A DNA stretch of 32,000 bases, from the NCBI RefSeq assembly GCF_000020225.1, contig NC_010655.1, positions 1,320,001 through 1,352,000 on the forward strand. Direction: 5' to 3'. Shown piece after piece: positions 4,301 to 14,292 of the stretch (position 1 is the stretch's first letter; every line of letters begins with the position of its first letter). The stretch comes from Akkermansia muciniphila ATCC BAA-835 (GTDB taxonomy: Bacteria > Verrucomicrobiota > Verrucomicrobiia > Verrucomicrobiales > Akkermansiaceae). Under the pieces are notes generated by a model, which was not told the DNA's origin, did not search any database, and saw only the letters and a program-made list of their open reading frames with translations. Both the position numbers and the translations under genes were made by a program.

Positions 4301-5530
4301 TTACGCCGCCTTTTCTTCCCGGAACCTTTTCAGGGGAATGGTGATGGTAAAAACAGTTTCCCGGTGGGGGATGCTGGAGACGGTGATGGCTCCGTCGTGG
4401 GCTTCCACGGCGCGTTTCACAATGGAGAGGCCTAGGCCCGTTCCCTTGATTTCCGAGGAGTGGTGGGTTTCCACCCGGTAAAAGCGGTTGAAGAGGAAGG
4501 GGATGCTTTCCACAGGAATGCCCACGCCCGTATCCGTGACGGTGATGACGCAGGCGTCCTGTGTTTTGGCGGCGGCCACAGTAATGGAAAGTCCCGGCTC
4601 CGTGTTTTGCTTGAGGGCGTTTTCCACCAAATTGAACAGAATTTGCGTCCAGTAAAAGGGATCTCCATAAAGTTCCCAATCCGTGGGAATGTCCATGTGC
4701 AGGACGGCCTGTTTTTTCTCCCGGATGGAATCCAGACGGGAGAAGACGTCGTCCGCGCAGGAGGTGAGGCGGAACCACTGCTCCTTCAGAATCGCCTTGT
4801 GGCCTGATTCGAGTTTGGAGATCATGAGCATGTCTTCAATAATGTTCATCAGCCTCTGGCTGTTCTGGTGCATGACTCCGATGAATTTGCGGGCCAGTCC
4901 GGGACTTTCCTCCACCAGATCGTCCTCCATCAGGTTTTCCAGATATCCCACGATGATGGTGAGGGGCGTACGCAGCTCGTGGGAGGCGTTTGCCACGAAG
5001 TCCCGGCGCATCTGGTTGGTGAGGTAGTTCTGCGTGATGTTGCGCAGCAGGATGCGCTTTTCTCTGATTGGGGCGTCCGTGATGGCGCTGTCCAGATGCC
5101 ACGCCGTGATGCCGTTTTGCACGCCGCCGGGGGAATTGGCGGCGCTCAGCGTGAATTCCTTGGTGACGGGGCCGTCCGTATCGAATGCTTCCTGAACATG
5201 CCCCAGCAATTCCTGGTTGCAGACCAGGGCCCCCACTTTGCGCCCTTCCAGCTTTTCTTCCTGAAAGAGTTCTTTGGCCAGCGTATTAGCCAGCACGATG
5301 TGTCCGGATGGACCGATGAGCAGGAAGGCCTCTCCCAGAGCTTCCAGGAAGCGCCGTTTGTCCGCGATGGCCTGTTCCTGCGCTTCTTCCCCGCGCTTCA
5401 GCAGGCGCTGAGCGTCCCGCAAGGCTTTTTTCCGGGCTTTCATGGCGGACCGACATACCTGGACCAGATGCCAGTTCAGGTACAGGGAGGCCAGAATAAG
5501 GATGGTTAGGATGTAGTCGATGGCCGACAT
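4301..5530 (-). CDS. Sensor histidine kinase (PhoR-like; one N-terminal TM, HisKA + HATPase_c)
   Basis: H-box FVANASHELRTPLT, N-box LFNLVENALK, G-boxes TDTGVGI and GTGLGLSIV. It starts 12 nt downstream of the response-regulator stop. Confidence 0.9.
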   Translation of the reverse strand: MSAIDYILTILILASLYLNWHLVQVCRSAMKARKKALRDAQRLLKRGEEAQEQAIADKRRFLEALGEAFLLIGPSGHIVLANTLAKELFQEEKLEGRKVGALVCNQELLGHVQEAFDTDGPVTKEFTLSAANSPGGVQNGITAWHLDSAITDAPIREKRILLRNITQNYLTNQMRRDFVANASHELRTPLTIIVGYLENLMEDDLVEESPGLARKFIGVMHQNSQRLMNIIEDMLMISKLESGHKAILKEQWFRLTSCADDVFSRLDSIREKKQAVLHMDIPTDWELYGDPFYWTQILFNLVENALKQNTEPGLSITVAAAKTQDACVITVTDTGVGIPVESIPFLFNRFYRVETHHSSEIKGTGLGLSIVKRAVEAHDGAITVSSIPHRETVFTITIPLKRFREEKAA

Positions 5531-8817: not shown

Positions 8818-11800
8818 TTAGAATGAGTAACTGACGGAGCCGTTGATTCCCTGGGCCGTCAGTCCGGCCCTGCTTTCCAGAGAGTATCCGATGCGGGCCC
8901 CCCACCTGTTGCCGAAGGCGGCGCTTATCCCTGCGTTGACGCGCAGAGCGGTGCGGCCTACGTTGACGCCGCGCGCCGTCCAGGCGCCCAGGTCACTGCT
9001 GACAGTCCCTTTGGGATTGAGGCGGCTGAGATCCTGAGTCACGGCAACTGTCACGCTGGGCGTCAGCGTGGCATTGGTTCCTGCCGCGTAGGTGCGGGAG
9101 AGGGTGATGCCTACGGGCAGCGTCCAGTTCTGGGCGCGCGCTCCGCTGAAGGTCCGGGCCAAGTCTCCGTGTTCGGAGAAGCTGTCCGTTTTCCCGGTCA
9201 TGAATTCCAGCCCGGCAAATGGTGCGATGACCAGTTTGTTGCGGAATTGTTCCGTCCAGGTGGCGTAGATGGCGGCTCCGAAAGAGTCAGAGTCAAATTT
9301 CCCGGCAGCGGAGGTGTCCGCCAGGCGGGCTTTCCCGTCAAAGGATGTGGTTCCGAAGGCTGCATACCCGTCCAGAGACAATTTGGAGGTTCCGGCGGGC
9401 GTGTAGCGGCCGTAGAGCATGGCCATGAAAGAATCCGCATCATAGCTGGACAGTCCTCCCTTGTCCTGGAAAGTTCCGTAAGATTGGCCGATGGCCACTC
9501 CTGCCAGGACGGAGGAGGAGAGCTTGCAATCCGCGCCTACGGCATAGCCGCCTGCGTCGTATTTGTAGCCGTCAATGCCGCTGCGCGAATGTTGGTCCGT
9601 CCAGGAACCCAGGCCGCCCACCCATACGGAGCCGCGGCCTGAAGCCACCGGCGCCATGGCGATGGGGGAACCCTTGGCGTCTGCAGACTGGACGGGCTTC
9701 GCTGCCGTAATATTCAGTCCCTGTGCGGCGGAAATGCCTCCCTGCGTCCTGCCCAGGGCGGCAAAACCCTTGAGAGCATCGTTGGAAGCCCAGGCCGCAT
9801 TGATCACGGTTTCCCCGCTGACGGATTGAATCATGGCTGCCGCCGCGTCTGCGCTGGAGGTTCCCAGAAGGGTTTCGAAGAACCTGTGTGCGGCTGAACC
9901 GTCCCGGACGCCCGTCCGGACCTGTTCCATGCCGGCTGCTGCGCCGGATATGTTCCCGGAATATCCCTGCATGGGGGCGGCGACTCCGTGCATATTTTGT
10001 GTCAGGCGGATAGTTCCGTTTTCATGGGGCGTTGCGCTTGTGGAGACGAAAGCGGTGTTGAACAGAGGCAGTTCGCTTACTTCGGCTCCGGTGATGGTGA
10101 CGTTGTCCACGGAAGAAGTTCCGGCGGCGGTGTGTGTGAGGTCGCGGCCGTTGCCCGCTTCATCGATATTCCAGAGTTTGATGGAGGAGTGGCCGTTGAA
10201 CGCGATGTCATTGAGGAGCAGGGAGGAACCTTCCCCCATTTCAATCACGGCGTTTCCGTTAATTTCCAACGTGTCTCCAGCCAGTACGGAATCTTCCGTC
10301 AGAATGACGCCTGCGCCATTCATTTCGTAGTCCGTCAGGTCTTCAACTCCCAATTGAGCTCCTTCCATGACCATGATGTCATCCACTTCGGCCAGGTGGC
10401 CCACGATCAGGGAGCCGGCTCCGGATTGCTGGATCAATGTTCCGCCGAATCCGTTATCCTCCGTGTCCGAGCCTCCGTAAAGCAGGTCGCCGCCGCCTGC
10501 CTGAATCAGCGTGGCGGCGCCACGCGTCCACGGACCGTCGTCAAGGGAGTAATAGTCTGCGTCGGAAATGCCGCTGTTGATGATGGTGATATCGTTCGCG
10601 TCCGTGTCCGCCAGAATGACGGAGCCGTCTTCCGCAAAGATGTCGTTAGCTTCTTCCCCGGCCGTGTTGCCGTCAAAGAAGGCTCCGGAGCCAATCAGAA
10701 GAATGCGGTTCTCCATCAGGTGGATGGCGCCTCCCAGCCCGGAGGCGGCATTATCCGTGAAGGTGACGTCCCTGCCGAGCCAGATATTGGCCCCTTCATT
10801 TTCAAAGAGGTCCTCCACATTGTCGCCATCCTGCTGCGCGAGGTTGCTCGTCAGTTCGGAAGCGATGGCCCCGCCATTGGCTCCAGCCGTGTTGCCGGAG
10901 AAGACAGTTCCGTTTCCTACCGTGATATCCAGCACTTCCGTGGTCAGTTTGGAGGTGCGTTCCCCGTCCGTATAGGTTATGGATTCGGCAATATTGTTCT
11001 GGGCGAAGACGGCTCCGCCGGATCCCGCTGCCGTATTGCTGATGAAGCTGTTGTTTTCTCCAATAACGATGTCTCCATGTGCATAGAGGGCGCCTCCCCT
11101 GGAGATATCCATGGCAGCGGACCTGCCCGGGGCCTTGCTGTTCATGAATGTATTGCCGCGGCCCGTGGTGATTTTGTTTTCGCGTTCCGTGACGGTAACT
11201 GTTCCGTTGAGAATATTCCCGTTTTCATCCGTATCAATGATGCTGGCGCGGATAAGGCTGTTGTCCGCATCGCTGAAGGCGCTCATGTGGTAAACGGGAG
11301 CATCTTCCGTTCCCTGATAAGTTACATTGTCCCCCAGCGTGATGGTATTTTCCGCAGCTACGGTGGTCATGGTCAGCGTAACATTGTCTCCAATGACTAC
11401 GTTCCCGCCATAAGTCCCTTCCGCATATTCTCCGGAGGCCAGCACATAGTCTCCTTCCGCGTTTTGCTTGATCGTCCCTTCAAAGGAGACGGTTCCACGG
11501 GTGGAAGCGCCGTCGTCTCCAATGGAGCCAACTGTGTCCCCTGCCCAGATATCGGCCATCTGGCTGCCGGAAAGATCGTTGTCGCCTGTAATTTCAGTAT
11601 TGCTTCCGATATAGATATTCCCTCCTTCCGCGTAAATATCAACATCGTCCAGCGTAGAGTTTGCTCCAATGGAGACGGTGGCCTGGTCTCCCGCTCCGGT
11701 GGTCATGCGCACGGTGCGGATTCCGTCTTCTCCTTCGGTTATGGACAGGGAATCCAGTTCCACGGATACGGCATCCAGTGTGACGGATGTCAGTTTTGCC

Positions 11801-12894
11801 CCTTCGCCGATGAAGATGGAACCTTGCGCATCCATGTCATAGTTTTCAATGGAACTGCCGTTGCCGACGGTGATGTCTCCGAACAGCCCCATGGTTTCCT
11901 CCATGCTGGTTCCGGGAAGGTAGGTTCCGTCTTCATCTTGTCTGGCAATGCCCTGGGAAAGGACAAGGGCTTCTGTCGTGATTTCCGCCCTCTCCTTGGC
12001 TGTCAGCGTACTGTTATCTCCCAGCAGTATTTCACCCCCAGTGGATTGGCTGTCGCCGCCCACGGTGCTCAGGTTCGTATCCTGCATCGTCACGGCTCCC
12101 GCGCTGAAGTCGATCCCTCCGTGAGCGCCGACGGTTTCCGACTGACCGATCAGGACGCCGGAATCTTCATTTTCATAAACGGATGTCGTATTGACGGCGC
12201 CTGTAGAGATGAGCGTGGAATCAGATAAGGAAATATCTCCATGGGAGACAATTTGGCCGCGGACTCCATCATTCATGGATAAATCCATTTCATGGATACG
12301 GACGTTTTTTCCCAGATCCATGGCAATTTCTCCCGGTGTAGAGGTGACTACCGTGGAGATGAAGGCTCCTGTTTCGGGATCAATTCTGGTTTCTATGGAG
12401 GCGGAATGCCCGGTAGTGACCTCATTCCGGCTGAGAACGGCTCCGTCTCCGGCCACCAGCTTGTTGTTTTCCAGCACAAGCCAGGTTCCTTCCAGCGTGG
12501 AAGCGTTTTCTATGGAAAGGGTGTTTCCTTCTTCGTCCCATCCGCTGAGCATGCCTTCCGTCATGTTGCCCACGTGAACGGTTCCACGGCCGCTCACGTT
12601 AAGATGCTGCATGTTCACGGCAGACATGTCCTTGTAGTTGAAGTTGGAGATGCTTCCTTTCCCGTCTGATTTGAGGACAATGGAGGCGTCTGCGGGCAGG
12701 GAGCCCAATTCTACTCCTTCAAAGTCGATGGAGCCGGTAATGGTCAACGTGTCTCCATCAGCCATCTGGTTCCAGGCTGTTTGAAATTCTTCCAGGGTGG
12801 AAGCTGTATATTCGGCGGCGAAGGTTTGGCTTCCAAGGACGCACATGGCTGCCAGAAGGGCCCGGCGCAACGGGAGGGGTAAACGAAGGTTCAT
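8818..12894 (-). CDS. Autotransporter outer-membrane protein with a Pmp-type (GGA[ILV]/FxxN) passenger domain, 1358 aa
   Basis: Signal peptide MNLRLPLPLRRALLAAMCVLGSQTFAAE. Gly/Asp/Thr/Asn-rich beta-helix-like passenger. GGALYA, GGAVFA, GGAIAS, GGAIHL plus FMNS, FISN, FSGN, FTDN, FDGN fall at about aa 578-755. The C-terminal ~280 aa has alternating barrel strands and ends ...SVSYSF. Confidence 0.9.
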   Translation of the reverse strand: MNLRLPLPLRRALLAAMCVLGSQTFAAEYTASTLEEFQTAWNQMADGDTLTITGSIDFEGVELGSLPADASIVLKSDGKGSISNFNYKDMSAVNMQHLNVSGRGTVHVGNMTEGMLSGWDEEGNTLSIENASTLEGTWLVLENNKLVAGDGAVLSRNEVTTGHSASIETRIDPETGAFISTVVTSTPGEIAMDLGKNVRIHEMDLSMNDGVRGQIVSHGDISLSDSTLISTGAVNTTSVYENEDSGVLIGQSETVGAHGGIDFSAGAVTMQDTNLSTVGGDSQSTGGEILLGDNSTLTAKERAEITTEALVLSQGIARQDEDGTYLPGTSMEETMGLFGDITVGNGSSIENYDMDAQGSIFIGEGAKLTSVTLDAVSVELDSLSITEGEDGIRTVRMTTGAGDQATVSIGANSTLDDVDIYAEGGNIYIGSNTEITGDNDLSGSQMADIWAGDTVGSIGDDGASTRGTVSFEGTIKQNAEGDYVLASGEYAEGTYGGNVVIGDNVTLTMTTVAAENTITLGDNVTYQGTEDAPVYHMSAFSDADNSLIRASIIDTDENGNILNGTVTVTERENKITTGRGNTFMNSKAPGRSAAMDISRGGALYAHGDIVIGENNSFISNTAAGSGGAVFAQNNIAESITYTDGERTSKLTTEVLDITVGNGTVFSGNTAGANGGAIASELTSNLAQQDGDNVEDLFENEGANIWLGRDVTFTDNAASGLGGAIHLMENRILLIGSGAFFDGNTAGEEANDIFAEDGSVILADTDANDITIINSGISDADYYSLDDGPWTRGAATLIQAGGGDLLYGGSDTEDNGFGGTLIQQSGAGSLIVGHLAEVDDIMVMEGAQLGVEDLTDYEMNGAGVILTEDSVLAGDTLEINGNAVIEMGEGSSLLLNDIAFNGHSSIKLWNIDEAGNGRDLTHTAAGTSSVDNVTITGAEVSELPLFNTAFVSTSATPHENGTIRLTQNMHGVAAPMQGYSGNISGAAAGMEQVRTGVRDGSAAHRFFETLLGTSSADAAAAMIQSVSGETVINAAWASNDALKGFAALGRTQGGISAAQGLNITAAKPVQSADAKGSPIAMAPVASGRGSVWVGGLGSWTDQHSRSGIDGYKYDAGGYAVGADCKLSSSVLAGVAIGQSYGTFQDKGGLSSYDADSFMAMLYGRYTPAGTSKLSLDGYAAFGTTSFDGKARLADTSAAGKFDSDSFGAAIYATWTEQFRNKLVIAPFAGLEFMTGKTDSFSEHGDLARTFSGARAQNWTLPVGITLSRTYAAGTNATLTPSVTVAVTQDLSRLNPKGTVSSDLGAWTARGVNVGRTALRVNAGISAAFGNRWGARIGYSLESRAGLTAQGINGSVSYSF

Positions 12895-12917
12895 GGTTTG
12901 TTATATTCAGATTAATT

Positions 12918-12950
12918 CAGGGAAAAGTGGAGATGAATGACTTTTCCCTG
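12918..12950 (-). promoter_or_regulatory. Perfect 11-bp hairpin in the autotransporter leader
   Basis: CAGGGAAAAGT (12918-12928) pairs with ACTTTTCCCTG (12940-12950), with an 11-nt loop. It lies between the ATG (12894) and the left inverted repeat. Confidence 0.4.
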
Positions 12951-12960
12951 CTGTTTATGT

Positions 12961-12979
12961 ACAGGATTGTTAATCCTGT
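12961..12979. repeat. Inverted repeat, left copy (IRL)
   Basis: ACAGGATTGTTAATCCTGT. It is the exact reverse complement of 13149-13167 and is internally palindromic except for the central GTT. Confidence 0.9.
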
Positions 12980-13148
12980 GTTTCTGAATATATCCCATTC
13001 GTTTTTTCCGCTTTGGGCACATAAATGCTCATGGTGCCTCGGAAGATTGAATCAACGGTTTATCTAACAAATAGAATTGTGGTTGTACATAAAGAATTGT
13101 CCGTAAAAAGAGATTAATGGATAAAAATATTGTAATTTTTTCTTGATA

Positions 13149-13167
13149 ACAGGATTAACAATCCTGT
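13149..13167. repeat. Inverted repeat, right copy (IRR)
   Basis: ACAGGATTAACAATCCTGT. It is the exact reverse complement of IRL, and identity stops at the 19-mer edges. Confidence 0.9.
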
Positions 13168-13194
13168 GATGTATCAGGTATTAATATAAAAAAC

Positions 13195-14292
13195 ATGATA
13201 TTCGGAATGGCGAGACATGGAAAAAACCAGAAGGAATATCTGGCTGCGGAAATGTTATTGAAAGGTAGCGGATTGAATATGCTGGATGCTGCCAGCCTCG
13301 CAGTAGAGCTGCTGAGCCTGTGCGGAGGCAGCCGCAGCATGCGCCGGGCCAGAAAGGCAATTTTTCTGGGTGCTGAGGAATTGAGGAAAGGGGAAAGGAC
13401 GGTTTCCTTTTCCGCCGCCGTGGAAGAAATGCTGAAGGCGAAGCGTAATCTTCGCCCTACGACGTTGCGCGATATCAGGTATTTCACCGGAGCTTTGATG
13501 CGGAGGTGTCCGGAATTGAAAGGTTTTCCGGTCCGGAAGCTGACGCCGGAGCATTGCGCCCATTTTCTGGAGGCTGCTTTTACATCCCACAGGCAGCGTT
13601 ACAAGGGCCGGGCGGTGATGAGCGGCGTTTTGTCCTTTTCCCTGCGGCGCGGATGGTGCGGGGAAAATCCTGTCGCCCGTGTGGACTCTCCTTCGTTTCG
13701 TGAACGGACGATTGCCATTTTGGCTCCGGAAGAGATAGGAAGCCTTCGGACGGTGGTGGAAGCTCCGGAATTTCGTGACTGCGCTCCGGCTGTTTGGGTA
13801 ATGTTGTACGCCGGAATCAGGCCGGGGGAGGTGGTGCGCCTCCATTGGCGTGATGTGGATTTGGAGGAGAGGGTCATTTCCGTAAGGTCCCGAACCAGTA
13901 AAACGGGGGGAATCAGGCATGTCACCATTCATGCTGTGCTCTGGCGGCTTCTGGCGGGATACGGAGCAGGGGGGCCGGCCGGACTGTTATGTCCTCCCAA
14001 TTGGCCGGTGCGCTGGAGGCTGCTCCGGAAAAAAGCCGGATGGGGGCTGCACAACCGCTTTGGAGAATGGAGTGCGGACGCGCTGAGGCATACTTATGCT
14101 TCCTATCACGCCAAATGGTTCAGGGATTTTTCCCTGCTTCAGCTGGAGATGGGGCATCGTTCCTCCTCCCTGTTGCGGGAGCGGTACCTGAACATGGAAG
14201 GGGTGAGCCGCGACAGGGCACGCCTTTTCTGGGAAGCGCCGGAACATGGCTGGAACAACAAAACCGGCATTGCAGGAACGGACTTTCTATGA
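13195..14292 (+). CDS. Tyrosine-type site-specific recombinase/integrase
   Basis: N-terminal SAM-like core-binding region. Catalytic-domain motifs AGIRPGEVVRLHWRDVDL (Arg I), ALRHTYAS (box II Arg), LEMGHRSSSLLRERYL (His and Tyr nucleophile). Confidence 0.9.
   Translation: MIFGMARHGKNQKEYLAAEMLLKGSGLNMLDAASLAVELLSLCGGSRSMRRARKAIFLGAEELRKGERTVSFSAAVEEMLKAKRNLRPTTLRDIRYFTGALMRRCPELKGFPVRKLTPEHCAHFLEAAFTSHRQRYKGRAVMSGVLSFSLRRGWCGENPVARVDSPSFRERTIAILAPEEIGSLRTVVEAPEFRDCAPAVWVMLYAGIRPGEVVRLHWRDVDLEERVISVRSRTSKTGGIRHVTIHAVLWRLLAGYGAGGPAGLLCPPNWPVRWRLLRKKAGWGLHNRFGEWSADALRHTYASYHAKWFRDFSLLQLEMGHRSSSLLRERYLNMEGVSRDRARLFWEAPEHGWNNKTGIAGTDFL

Follow-up and report, generated by a model that had tools for sequence, protein, structure and literature searches.

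We analyzed a 32,000-nucleotide stretch of the Akkermansia muciniphila ATCC BAA-835 genome (contig NC_010655.1, positions 1,320,001 to 1,352,000; referred to here as the window), in which a 207-bp unit at positions 12961–13167 separates the gene of a Pmp-type autotransporter on the minus strand from a tyrosine recombinase gene on the plus strand. Our results indicate that this unit is very probably an inverton, an invertible DNA element, of the Akkermansia family that carries GGATT-N3-AATCC repeats, and that it would act through the recombination sites, the enzyme, and the split promoter proposed below. Natural populations of A. muciniphila harbour the central segment in either orientation, in no fewer than two strain backgrounds.

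The left and right inverted repeats of the unit, IRL (ACAGGATTGTTAATCCTGT, 12961–12979) and IRR (ACAGGATTAACAATCCTGT, 13149–13167), are exact reverse complements of each other. Each 19-mer is itself an 8-3-8 palindrome, with the centre GTT in IRL and AAC in IRR. Exact identity ends at the 19-mer edges; a 49-nt extension returned by the repeat search is merely 73% complementary and consists of AT-rich DNA. When ACAGGATTNNNAATCCTGT was searched with up to two mismatches, these two sites were the only ones in the 32 kb, and the dinucleotide-preserving shuffles gave 0 of 100. The repeats enclose an inner segment of 169 bp (12980–13148) with 32% GC, compared with ~55% GC in the flanks. IRL lies 66 nt from the ATG of the autotransporter gene and IRR 27 nt from that of the recombinase gene, or 39 nt if the recombinase starts at Met5 (13207), as it does in many database entries. 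The autotransporter open reading frame (ORF) matches the Autotransporter beta-domain (E = 4e-44) and the Chlam_PMP repeat in Pfam and POMP_repeat in NCBIfam. A first-pass annotation of the stretch had described a pair of exact reverse complements with similarity stopping at their edges, palindromes with an asymmetric centre, an AT-rich segment of this length at these distances from the two ATGs, and a 1358-aa autotransporter opposite a tyrosine recombinase. The repeat search, the ORF coordinates, and the Pfam domains confirm this description on every point.

Inversion and deletion of the segment in natural populations

Public metagenome contigs were scanned for the exact 19-mer, which gave 53 stretches, and seven further contigs were added by way of the recombinase protein. 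Each contig was classified by BLAST of the left flank, the inner segment, and the right flank, and those with flanks at least 98% identical were assigned to A. muciniphila. Twenty-four A. muciniphila contigs carry the segment in the orientation of the window, and two carry it flipped, L025 completely and L195 as the flipped junction alone. In L025 (OGWU01001756.1), the inner segment is the 100% reverse complement of that in the window, with the repeats and the flanks unchanged. The inverted arrangement of the two core sites had been taken to predict inversion, with a search of assemblies for the flipped form as one check; L025, in which the segment is flipped exactly between intact repeats, and the junction in L195 bear this prediction out.

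The two orientations occur on the same genetic background. L025 is identical to L029, which has the window orientation, across 4076 bp to the left and 881 bp to the right of the switch, whereas other strains differ from L025 by 16–30 single-nucleotide polymorphisms (SNPs) over comparable lengths, indicating that the same strain lineage occurs in both orientations. The contig L195, a Logan contig found in four samples, starts with TATTCAGAAAC-ACAGGATTAAC, the flipped recombinase-side junction. L196 begins at the first base of IRR and so breaks exactly at its inner edge, where an assembly graph would be expected to branch. These two contigs have a common haplotype that is 4 SNPs per 880 bp away from L025 and L029, so that inversion has taken place in at least two backgrounds. 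At k > 19, reads of the window orientation alone cannot give rise to a flipped junction, and we therefore treated the flipped contigs as real.

Flipped and unflipped forms on an identical ~5-kb haplotype, together with a flip in two haplotypes, are difficult to reconcile with a rare fixed structural polymorphism that arose by illegitimate or homologous recombination between short repeats. We regard this explanation as very improbable, even though just 2 of the 26 intact contigs of A. muciniphila show the flipped arrangement and non-programmed events do occur at these repeats, as a single 188-bp deletion described below demonstrates. A 19-bp repeat is also below the usual length for RecA-dependent exchange. 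Furthermore, the repeats appear to be under purifying selection, with centres that co-vary across species, and the same motif marks experimentally verified invertons of A. muciniphila (PMC13343947).

The 19-mers are nearly perfect palindromes and lie in a region of divergent promoters, which would also suit a pair of operators, unrelated to recombination, through which a dimeric transcription factor regulates the genes on either side. The first-pass annotation had named this alternative among those that would overturn its proposal. It is contradicted by the flipped contigs L025 and L195, where inversion is observed exactly at the repeat edges, and it does not predict centres that are inverted and identical within a locus and vary between loci; we therefore give it next to no credence.

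In addition, six independent contigs (L002, L007, L016/L039, L026, L035, and L049) lack exactly 188 bp, corresponding to the inner segment and one repeat copy. A single site remains in them, in which GTT forms the centre between a left and a right arm, and the recombinase ORF is still intact. All of these contigs are identical in 3 kb of flanking sequence, a single SNP separates them from the intact contigs L005 and L011, and the two-site form is carried by the sister species (four species). The single haplotype and the two-site state of the sister species indicate that the deletion is one derived event, confined to a single widespread lineage, and not recurrent excision. Slippage between the 8–9-nt direct repeats within the palindromic arms would give this product, and a rare misaligned reaction of the recombinase would give it equally. 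We rejected an assembly artefact as the source of the deletion alleles, given six independent assemblies built with k-mers longer than the 19-bp repeat. The idea that the segment is a miniature inverted-repeat transposable element or an integrated circle was likewise rejected, since the two-site state is ancestral, the empty allele belongs to one haplotype, and the sites are inverted and not direct. The deletion lineage represents a natural "locked" variant.

One of the contigs in this group, OGYF01000020.1 (181.8 kb), has ends that are mutually reverse complementary and contains the locus twice (L016 and L039). This duplication is probably an assembly artefact, and the two copies were counted once.

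Recombination sites and the candidate invertase

The repeats are better conserved than the DNA around them. In a sister species, both 19-mers are 19/19 identical to those of the window, compared with 87–88% identity in the flanks and 81% in the inner segment. In a more distant species, whose recombinase is 72–76% identical, the arms are the same and both centres have changed together, from GTT/AAC to GCC/GGC, in 8 contigs. These comparisons argue for strong purifying selection on the 19-mers across species, with co-varying centres. Conservation of the repeat pair in related genomes had been put forward as a check on the switch, and the 19-mers are indeed kept across Akkermansia species; the flipped form is seen in A. 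muciniphila.

To extend the comparison to other loci, one genome per species was scanned for GGATTNNNAATCC, a gap of 155–185 nt, and a second GGATTNNNAATCC, with the centres left free. The scan, whose sample did not include the A. muciniphila type genome, yielded at least 10 Akkermansiaceae loci. Among the matches listed, and with the window included, all 11 Akkermansiaceae pairs have centres that match exactly in inverted orientation, and the triplet differs between loci (GTT, GCT, ATC, GCG, TAG, GCC, TAT, and TTG). Such pairing within loci is expected if the centre lies in the region of strand exchange, where the partners must be identical. On the general mechanism of Cre, Xer, and Flp-type recombinases, the overlap region is probably the 7 bp TT-NNN-AA. 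The earlier description of two arms around an asymmetric centre as a recombinase core thus holds across the family, with centres that vary between loci and match within pairs. Each 19-mer would be a recombination site composed of two symmetric binding arms and an asymmetric 3-nt centre, the latter setting the polarity of the site and having to match between partners. Because the two sites are mutually inverted, strand exchange between them would flip the 169-bp segment.

Most of the listed matches from other families, chiefly in Bacteroidota, had the appearance of tandem tRNA genes, judged by their match pattern, and were discarded. GGATT-NNN-AATCC resembles a tRNA anticodon stem-loop; in L084, the single case inspected by eye, there are two identical copies with the same centre. 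This resemblance is a pitfall when genomes are scanned for the inverton motif. Eleven contigs of an unrelated organism with 31% GC (L008, L013, L019–L021, L027, L040, L047, L052, L053, and L057) carry a lone 19-mer at one conserved place. Partnerless 19-mers in these low-GC contigs and in several environmental contigs were set aside as chance or unrelated occurrences.

The sequence of the recombinase encoded next to IRR equals that of ACD04941.1 (B2UR56) of ATCC BAA-835, and several complete genomes encode the identical protein. It matches Pfam PF00589 (Phage_integrase) with 37.8 bits against a cut-off of 27.1, and the catalytic residues Arg-209 (Arg-I), Lys-236, Arg-298 (Arg-II), His-321 (His/Trp-III), and Tyr-331 (the nucleophile) do not vary among 15 family members and line up with those of XerA and XerC-like proteins. 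The AlphaFold model (pLDDT 80), a two-domain fold, retrieves lambda Int, XerA, Tn1549 Int, IntI4, XerH, and Cre as top Foldseek hits (E = 2e-9 to 1e-5) and contains an extra helical N-terminal region of lower confidence. Scores against the XerA, XerC, and XerD models of NCBIfam are 31–41 bits, below the equivalog cut-offs of 220–335. Judged by these matches, the protein is Xer-like and not a Xer orthologue. Its family comprises several deep lineages with 40–50% identity.

Orthologues of the window recombinase hold the same place beside the switch and the autotransporter gene in at least four species, so that the fimS-like layout recognized by the first-pass annotation, an invertible element adjoining a recombinase gene and an adhesin-like gene, is not confined to A. 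muciniphila. Across the wider family, a switch of the same design lies 1–27 nt upstream of the recombinase start in seven of the nine lineages examined (the window, L063, L199, L203, L204, L205, and L197); ACD05478 and P0019 are the exceptions. In L063, whose recombinase has 37% identity, the switch starts ~20 nt from the recombinase gene. L199 has the pair GGATT-TAC-AATCC/GGATT-GTA-AATCC, and its repeat ends 22 nt before the ATG. L203 has an imperfect pair, GGATT-TCA-AATCC/GGATT-TGA-AATTC (16 nt, 94% complementary), opposite a 1070-aa autotransporter. The L204 switch (2811–2999; GTATT-GCA-AATAC/GTATT-TGC-AATAC) ends 1 nt before the ATG and lies opposite a TRL protein and a 1614-aa autotransporter, and in L205 and L197 the pairs have the centres CGG/CCG and face Pmp-like or unknown genes. 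An autotransporter or Pmp-like gene takes the position across from the recombinase in three further lineages of the enzyme. Given ~30 switches per 2.7-Mb genome, we estimate the probability of chance adjacency at well under 1% per gene.

Because relatives in most of the sampled lineages directly adjoin a switch of the same design, we infer fairly strongly that the invertase is a member of this Akkermansiaceae Xer-like family, most likely the adjacent gene at 13195–14292. L204 adds to this picture. Its arms read GTATT/AATAC instead of GGATT/AATCC, symmetrically in both copies, and its recombinase is 47% identical to that of the window, which looks like enzyme-site co-evolution.

A. muciniphila also encodes a paralogue, ACD05478.1 (B2UM34), which is 44% identical to the window recombinase and has the same invariant residues (L181 and L200–L202). 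Its gene lies between those of a GH2 protein and an arginine decarboxylase, with no GGATT-N3-AATCC pair within 6 kb. The exact sequence of ACD05478 is on record in 13104 collection blocks, compared with 568 for the window recombinase, and in this sense it is the more strongly conserved of the two. Moreover, the other Akkermansiaceae switches have no family recombinase within their 8-kb stretches; most Akkermansia invertons lack a recombinase gene nearby, and some must be flipped in trans. The inverton of the window might likewise be flipped in trans by ACD05478 or by an unrelated recombinase, with the adjacent recombinase employed otherwise or being a passenger regulated by the switch. We consider this unlikely. 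Recombinase and switch lie side by side in seven of nine lineages, some of them only 40–50% identical; the arms of L204 have changed along with its neighbouring recombinase; and the distinctive ACA that precedes GGATT at the window locus in all four species fits a dedicated pair of enzyme and site. Trans action by the paralogue is nevertheless the main uncertainty about the enzyme.

Degenerate pairs (AGATT-TGT-AATCC/GGATT-ACA-AATTC) adjoining a GTCAAG motif were also seen at 4959–6721 in L197/L198. They lie among glycosyltransferase genes, 2–3.5 kb downstream of a family recombinase, and may be switches of a glycan locus.

Candidate promoter sequences and the predicted state of the switch

A T-tract followed by a TTGAC-like hexamer is present at one inner end of 14 of the 14 switches compared, 1–3 nt from the core and pointing outward. 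The module of the window (TTTTTTCTTGATA) lies 3 nt from the GGATT core, points outward through IRR, and is kept at this locus in four species; TTTTTTGCTTGAC, GGTTGACA, and TTATTGACA are its counterparts at other switches. Over the 14 switches, the mean match to TTGACA is 4.9/6 at the module end versus 2.9/6 at the other inner end.

In every recombinase-adjacent switch the module end faces the recombinase, and wherever a surface or secreted protein is recognizable as a neighbour (8 of the 14 switches), its gene lies on the far side and the module faces away from it. The far-side gene of the remaining switches is unannotated, unseen, or encodes TerD or RNase PH. In L204, L205, and L197 the repeat ends 1–6 nt before the recombinase ATG, and a transcript launched by the module would start inside the ORF; the module therefore cannot serve the recombinase at these loci. 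An inward promoter running from the module end toward the autotransporter was also considered and rejected, as no hexamer pair at usable spacing was found in any family member.

We then flipped the segments in silico. After the flip, TAnnnT occurs at 16–18 nt (mostly 17) from the module in the far outer flank of 10 of 14 switches, the hexamers being TATGCT, TATACT, TATTCT, TAGGCT, TAGCTT, TAATTT, and TAGAAT. The same test gave 1/14 in the far inner flank and 2/14 in the near outer flank, against a background of 2%. The enrichment corresponds to a binomial P of 1e-14 and a Fisher P of 0.006 for far versus near flank, values to be read with the mutual relatedness of some loci in mind.

Taken together, these observations suggest, with moderate strength, that the switch works by means of a split promoter. 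The segment would carry only the upstream half of a promoter, the T-tract and TTGATA at 13136–13148. In the orientation of the window, this half-promoter would abut the recombinase start without a usable -10 element. After a flip it would come to lie 17–18 nt from a TA-initiated hexamer beside IRL and drive transcription of the autotransporter gene. The recombination site itself would then serve as the promoter spacer, and the -10 element would be fixed beside the regulated gene. From this arrangement, the window and nearly all assemblies are predicted to be autotransporter-OFF and L025 to be ON.

Inversion could also operate without a split promoter, through a complete promoter inside the segment (for example at 13047–13077) or through another orientation signal, the module then being an accessory or bending site. 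A plus-strand candidate is formed by TTGAAT (13047–13052) and TAGAAT (13072–13077), 19 nt apart, with TTGATA-17-TAGATT as its equivalent in L128; the standard promoter scan missed it. Invariant blocks do lie deep in the segment (13063–13075 and 13084–13090), the -10 candidate of the window is poor, and whole promoters are present in classical invertons, among them fimS and the Bacteroides elements. These blocks, however, are conserved among orthologues only and not family-wide, and neither the fixed 1–3-nt distance of the module nor the flank-specific TAnnnT (10/14 versus 1/14 and 2/14) is easily explained by recombination alone. We therefore view a complete internal promoter as a rather unlikely, though serious, competitor of the split promoter. 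Both predict the same direction of transcription: in the window orientation it would run toward the recombinase gene, and a flip would turn it toward the autotransporter gene.

Several observations weigh against the proposed switch. The flipped state is rare, occurring in 2 of 26 intact A. muciniphila contigs and in 0 of ~20 sister-species contigs, and the evidence for both orientations comes from assemblies only, from which switching rates and within-sample mixtures are inferred. With regard to the sites, the arms of the window read ACA-GGATT, and all eight Akkermansiaceae switches sampled elsewhere have C directly before GGATT, except at the recombinase-side site of L063. As for the enzyme, Asp-295 is invariant at the His-II position (HxxR becomes DxLR), opposite the His of the XerA sequence PHVLRH. 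Nearly all tyrosine recombinases have a second histidine at this position; the substitution is common to the whole family and is therefore probably tolerated. ACD05478, which has no adjoining switch, could be the acting enzyme, and a promoter of the recombinase's own was looked for at the locus and not located.

The promoter evidence has weak points as well. The window composite, TTGATA-18 nt-TACATA, is the weakest of the set, lacks the final T, and fails the strict TAnnnT pattern; the -10 candidates of its orthologues are TATGTA and TATATG. The TA-rich outer arms could in part be recombinase-binding sequence and not a -10 element. Finally, a generic sigma-70 scan of the segment was empty, and the scan gave no enrichment over shuffles in this genome. 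A generic terminator scan likewise found nothing in the segment and showed no enrichment over shuffles, and when the T-tract/TTGA module was searched for elsewhere in the window, no consistent arrangement upstream of genes emerged.

A broader proposal covers the whole inverton family. Here, the Akkermansiaceae Xer-like clade with Asp at the His-II position would be the invertases of all its members, descended from an ancestral autotransporter-switch-recombinase cassette; the switches would use split promoters with the recombination site as a 17-bp spacer, and the variable 3-nt centre would be an address that prevents cross-recombination among ~30 switches. We offer this extension tentatively, as possible rather than probable.

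The features of the locus are collected in Table 1. Between IRL and the ATG of the autotransporter gene, the leader contains a conserved stem-loop, built in the window from a perfect inverted repeat of 11 bp; RNAalifold over five species predicts 14 pairs for it, 7 of which show compensatory changes. An Rfam search of 12600–13400, this stem-loop included, matched no family. The pair of autotransporter and recombinase genes is surrounded by UDG, radical-SAM, and ilvD genes.

Table 1. Features of the proposed switch and its neighbours, in window coordinates
Feature	Position	Strand	Evidence
IRL, autotransporter-side recombination site, ACAGGATT-GTT-AATCCTGT	12961..12979		Repeat search, cross-species conservation
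IRR, recombinase-side recombination site, reverse complement of IRL, centre AAC	13149..13167		Repeat search; L195/L196 breakpoints
Invertible segment, 169 bp	12980..13148		Inverted in L025; deleted in one lineage
T-tract and -35-like hexamer, TTTTTTC TTGATA, candidate mobile half-promoter	13136..13148	+	Comparison of 14 switches
TACATA, candidate fixed -10 element, autotransporter side	12953..12958	-	In-silico flip; weak, without final T
Segment blocks invariant in four species, TCTAACAAATAGA (13063–13075) and TGTACAT (13084–13090)	13063..13090		Alignment
Xer-like tyrosine recombinase, 365 aa, candidate invertase	13195..14292	+	Pfam PF00589, predicted fold, synteny
Pmp-type autotransporter, 1358 aa, presumed regulated gene	8818..12894	-	Pfam, NCBIfam
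Conserved leader stem-loop between IRL and autotransporter ATG	12918..12950	-	Inverted repeat, RNAalifold

Relation to known inversion systems

Invertons of this kind are already known in A. muciniphila, and the element studied here is a member of a described family. The repeat motif of Akkermansia invertons is CGGATT..AATCCG (Jiang et al. 2019, as quoted in PMC13343947). The core of this motif is present in the window as the pair CAGGATTGTTAATCCTG and CAGGATTAACAATCCTG, with one deviation, A for C before GGATT, and the common GGATT-N3-AATCC core places the window switch in the published family. One member, the cps1 capsule inverton, flips in vitro, in mice, and in humans, as determined by PCR with restriction digest, quantitative PCR, and long reads (PMC13343947, mBio 2026). 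The cps1 inverton has also been shown to affect colonization. In ATCC BAA-835, the hCom2 study counts 32 invertons of repeat group 138; they are enriched in the vicinity of PEP-CTERM and autotransporter genes and have a promoter-like internal motif, 138-2 (PMC11892184). An internal directional motif, the T-tract with TTGAC, is common to the 14 switches that we compared.

The capsule-inverton paper makes no mention of a recombinase (PMC13343947), the hCom2 text ties no invertase group to group 138 (PMC11892184), and our literature search returned no paper combining A. muciniphila, phase variation, and tyrosine recombinase. Three findings appear to be new relative to these two studies: the comparative link of the switches to a specific recombinase family, the repeated occurrence of an autotransporter-switch-recombinase cassette, and the indications of a split promoter. 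The flipping enzyme is unnamed in the text of both, and the present locus offers ACD04941.1 and ACD05478 as candidates. A. muciniphila is a leading candidate probiotic whose strains differ in colonization ability. The -35 module, the repeat, and the flank -10 element together provide a sequence rule for calling ON and OFF from assemblies. If this rule is true, the orientation of each family member in a metagenome would give its predicted surface-protein expression, and if it holds, knocking out one or two genes would yield phase-locked strains.

The window switch resembles the published Akkermansia invertons in organism, repeat core, intergenic position, proximity to surface-protein genes, and occurrence of both orientations in sequence data. 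It is also of similar size, with 188 bp from centre to centre compared with 174 bp in a published example (2092093–2092283). It differs from them in its ACA-GGATT arms and in its position directly against a recombinase gene.

Escherichia coli fimS, with FimB and FimE, is likewise a short intergenic element with short inverted repeats that adjoins tyrosine recombinase genes and switches an adhesin. The fimS element has 9-bp repeats and a complete promoter and is acted on by two small recombinases together with IHF and Lrp. The A. muciniphila locus, in contrast, has a single Xer-like enzyme of 365 aa, which carries an additional helical region at its N terminus and an Asp in place of His-II. The repeats of this locus are near-palindromes of 19 bp, and its promoter is probably divided between the two sides of a repeat.

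A second enterobacterial case is ipuS of uropathogenic E. coli, with IpuA and IpuB. Transcription of the autotransporter UpaE depends on the orientation of ipuS, which is flipped by several Fim-type recombinases and drives the operon ipuR-upaE (PMC6083910). The two systems are alike in having an invertible element beside tyrosine recombinase genes and an autotransporter as target, presumed in our case, and they differ in that ours belongs to another phylum and has unrelated repeats.

The invertons of Bacteroides fragilis are also numerous per genome, have a common motif, mostly lack a recombinase nearby (indicating trans action), and control the surface structures of a gut symbiont. Their global invertase Mpi is a serine recombinase, locus-linked Tsr enzymes are tyrosine recombinases, and whole promoters of the TAnnTTTG type are inverted. 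Compared with Mpi, the candidate enzymes of the Akkermansia family are Xer-like tyrosine recombinases.

Finally, hybrid promoters formed by outward-directed -35 elements at the ends of insertion sequences, and the phase-variable promoter spacers of Neisseria and Haemophilus, provide a parallel for the proposed promoter. In these systems, as in the switch proposed here, expression needs a -35 element at the correct distance from a separate -10 element. They reach that distance by transposition or repeat slippage, whereas in A. muciniphila it would be set by reversible site-specific inversion, with the recombination site itself as the spacer.

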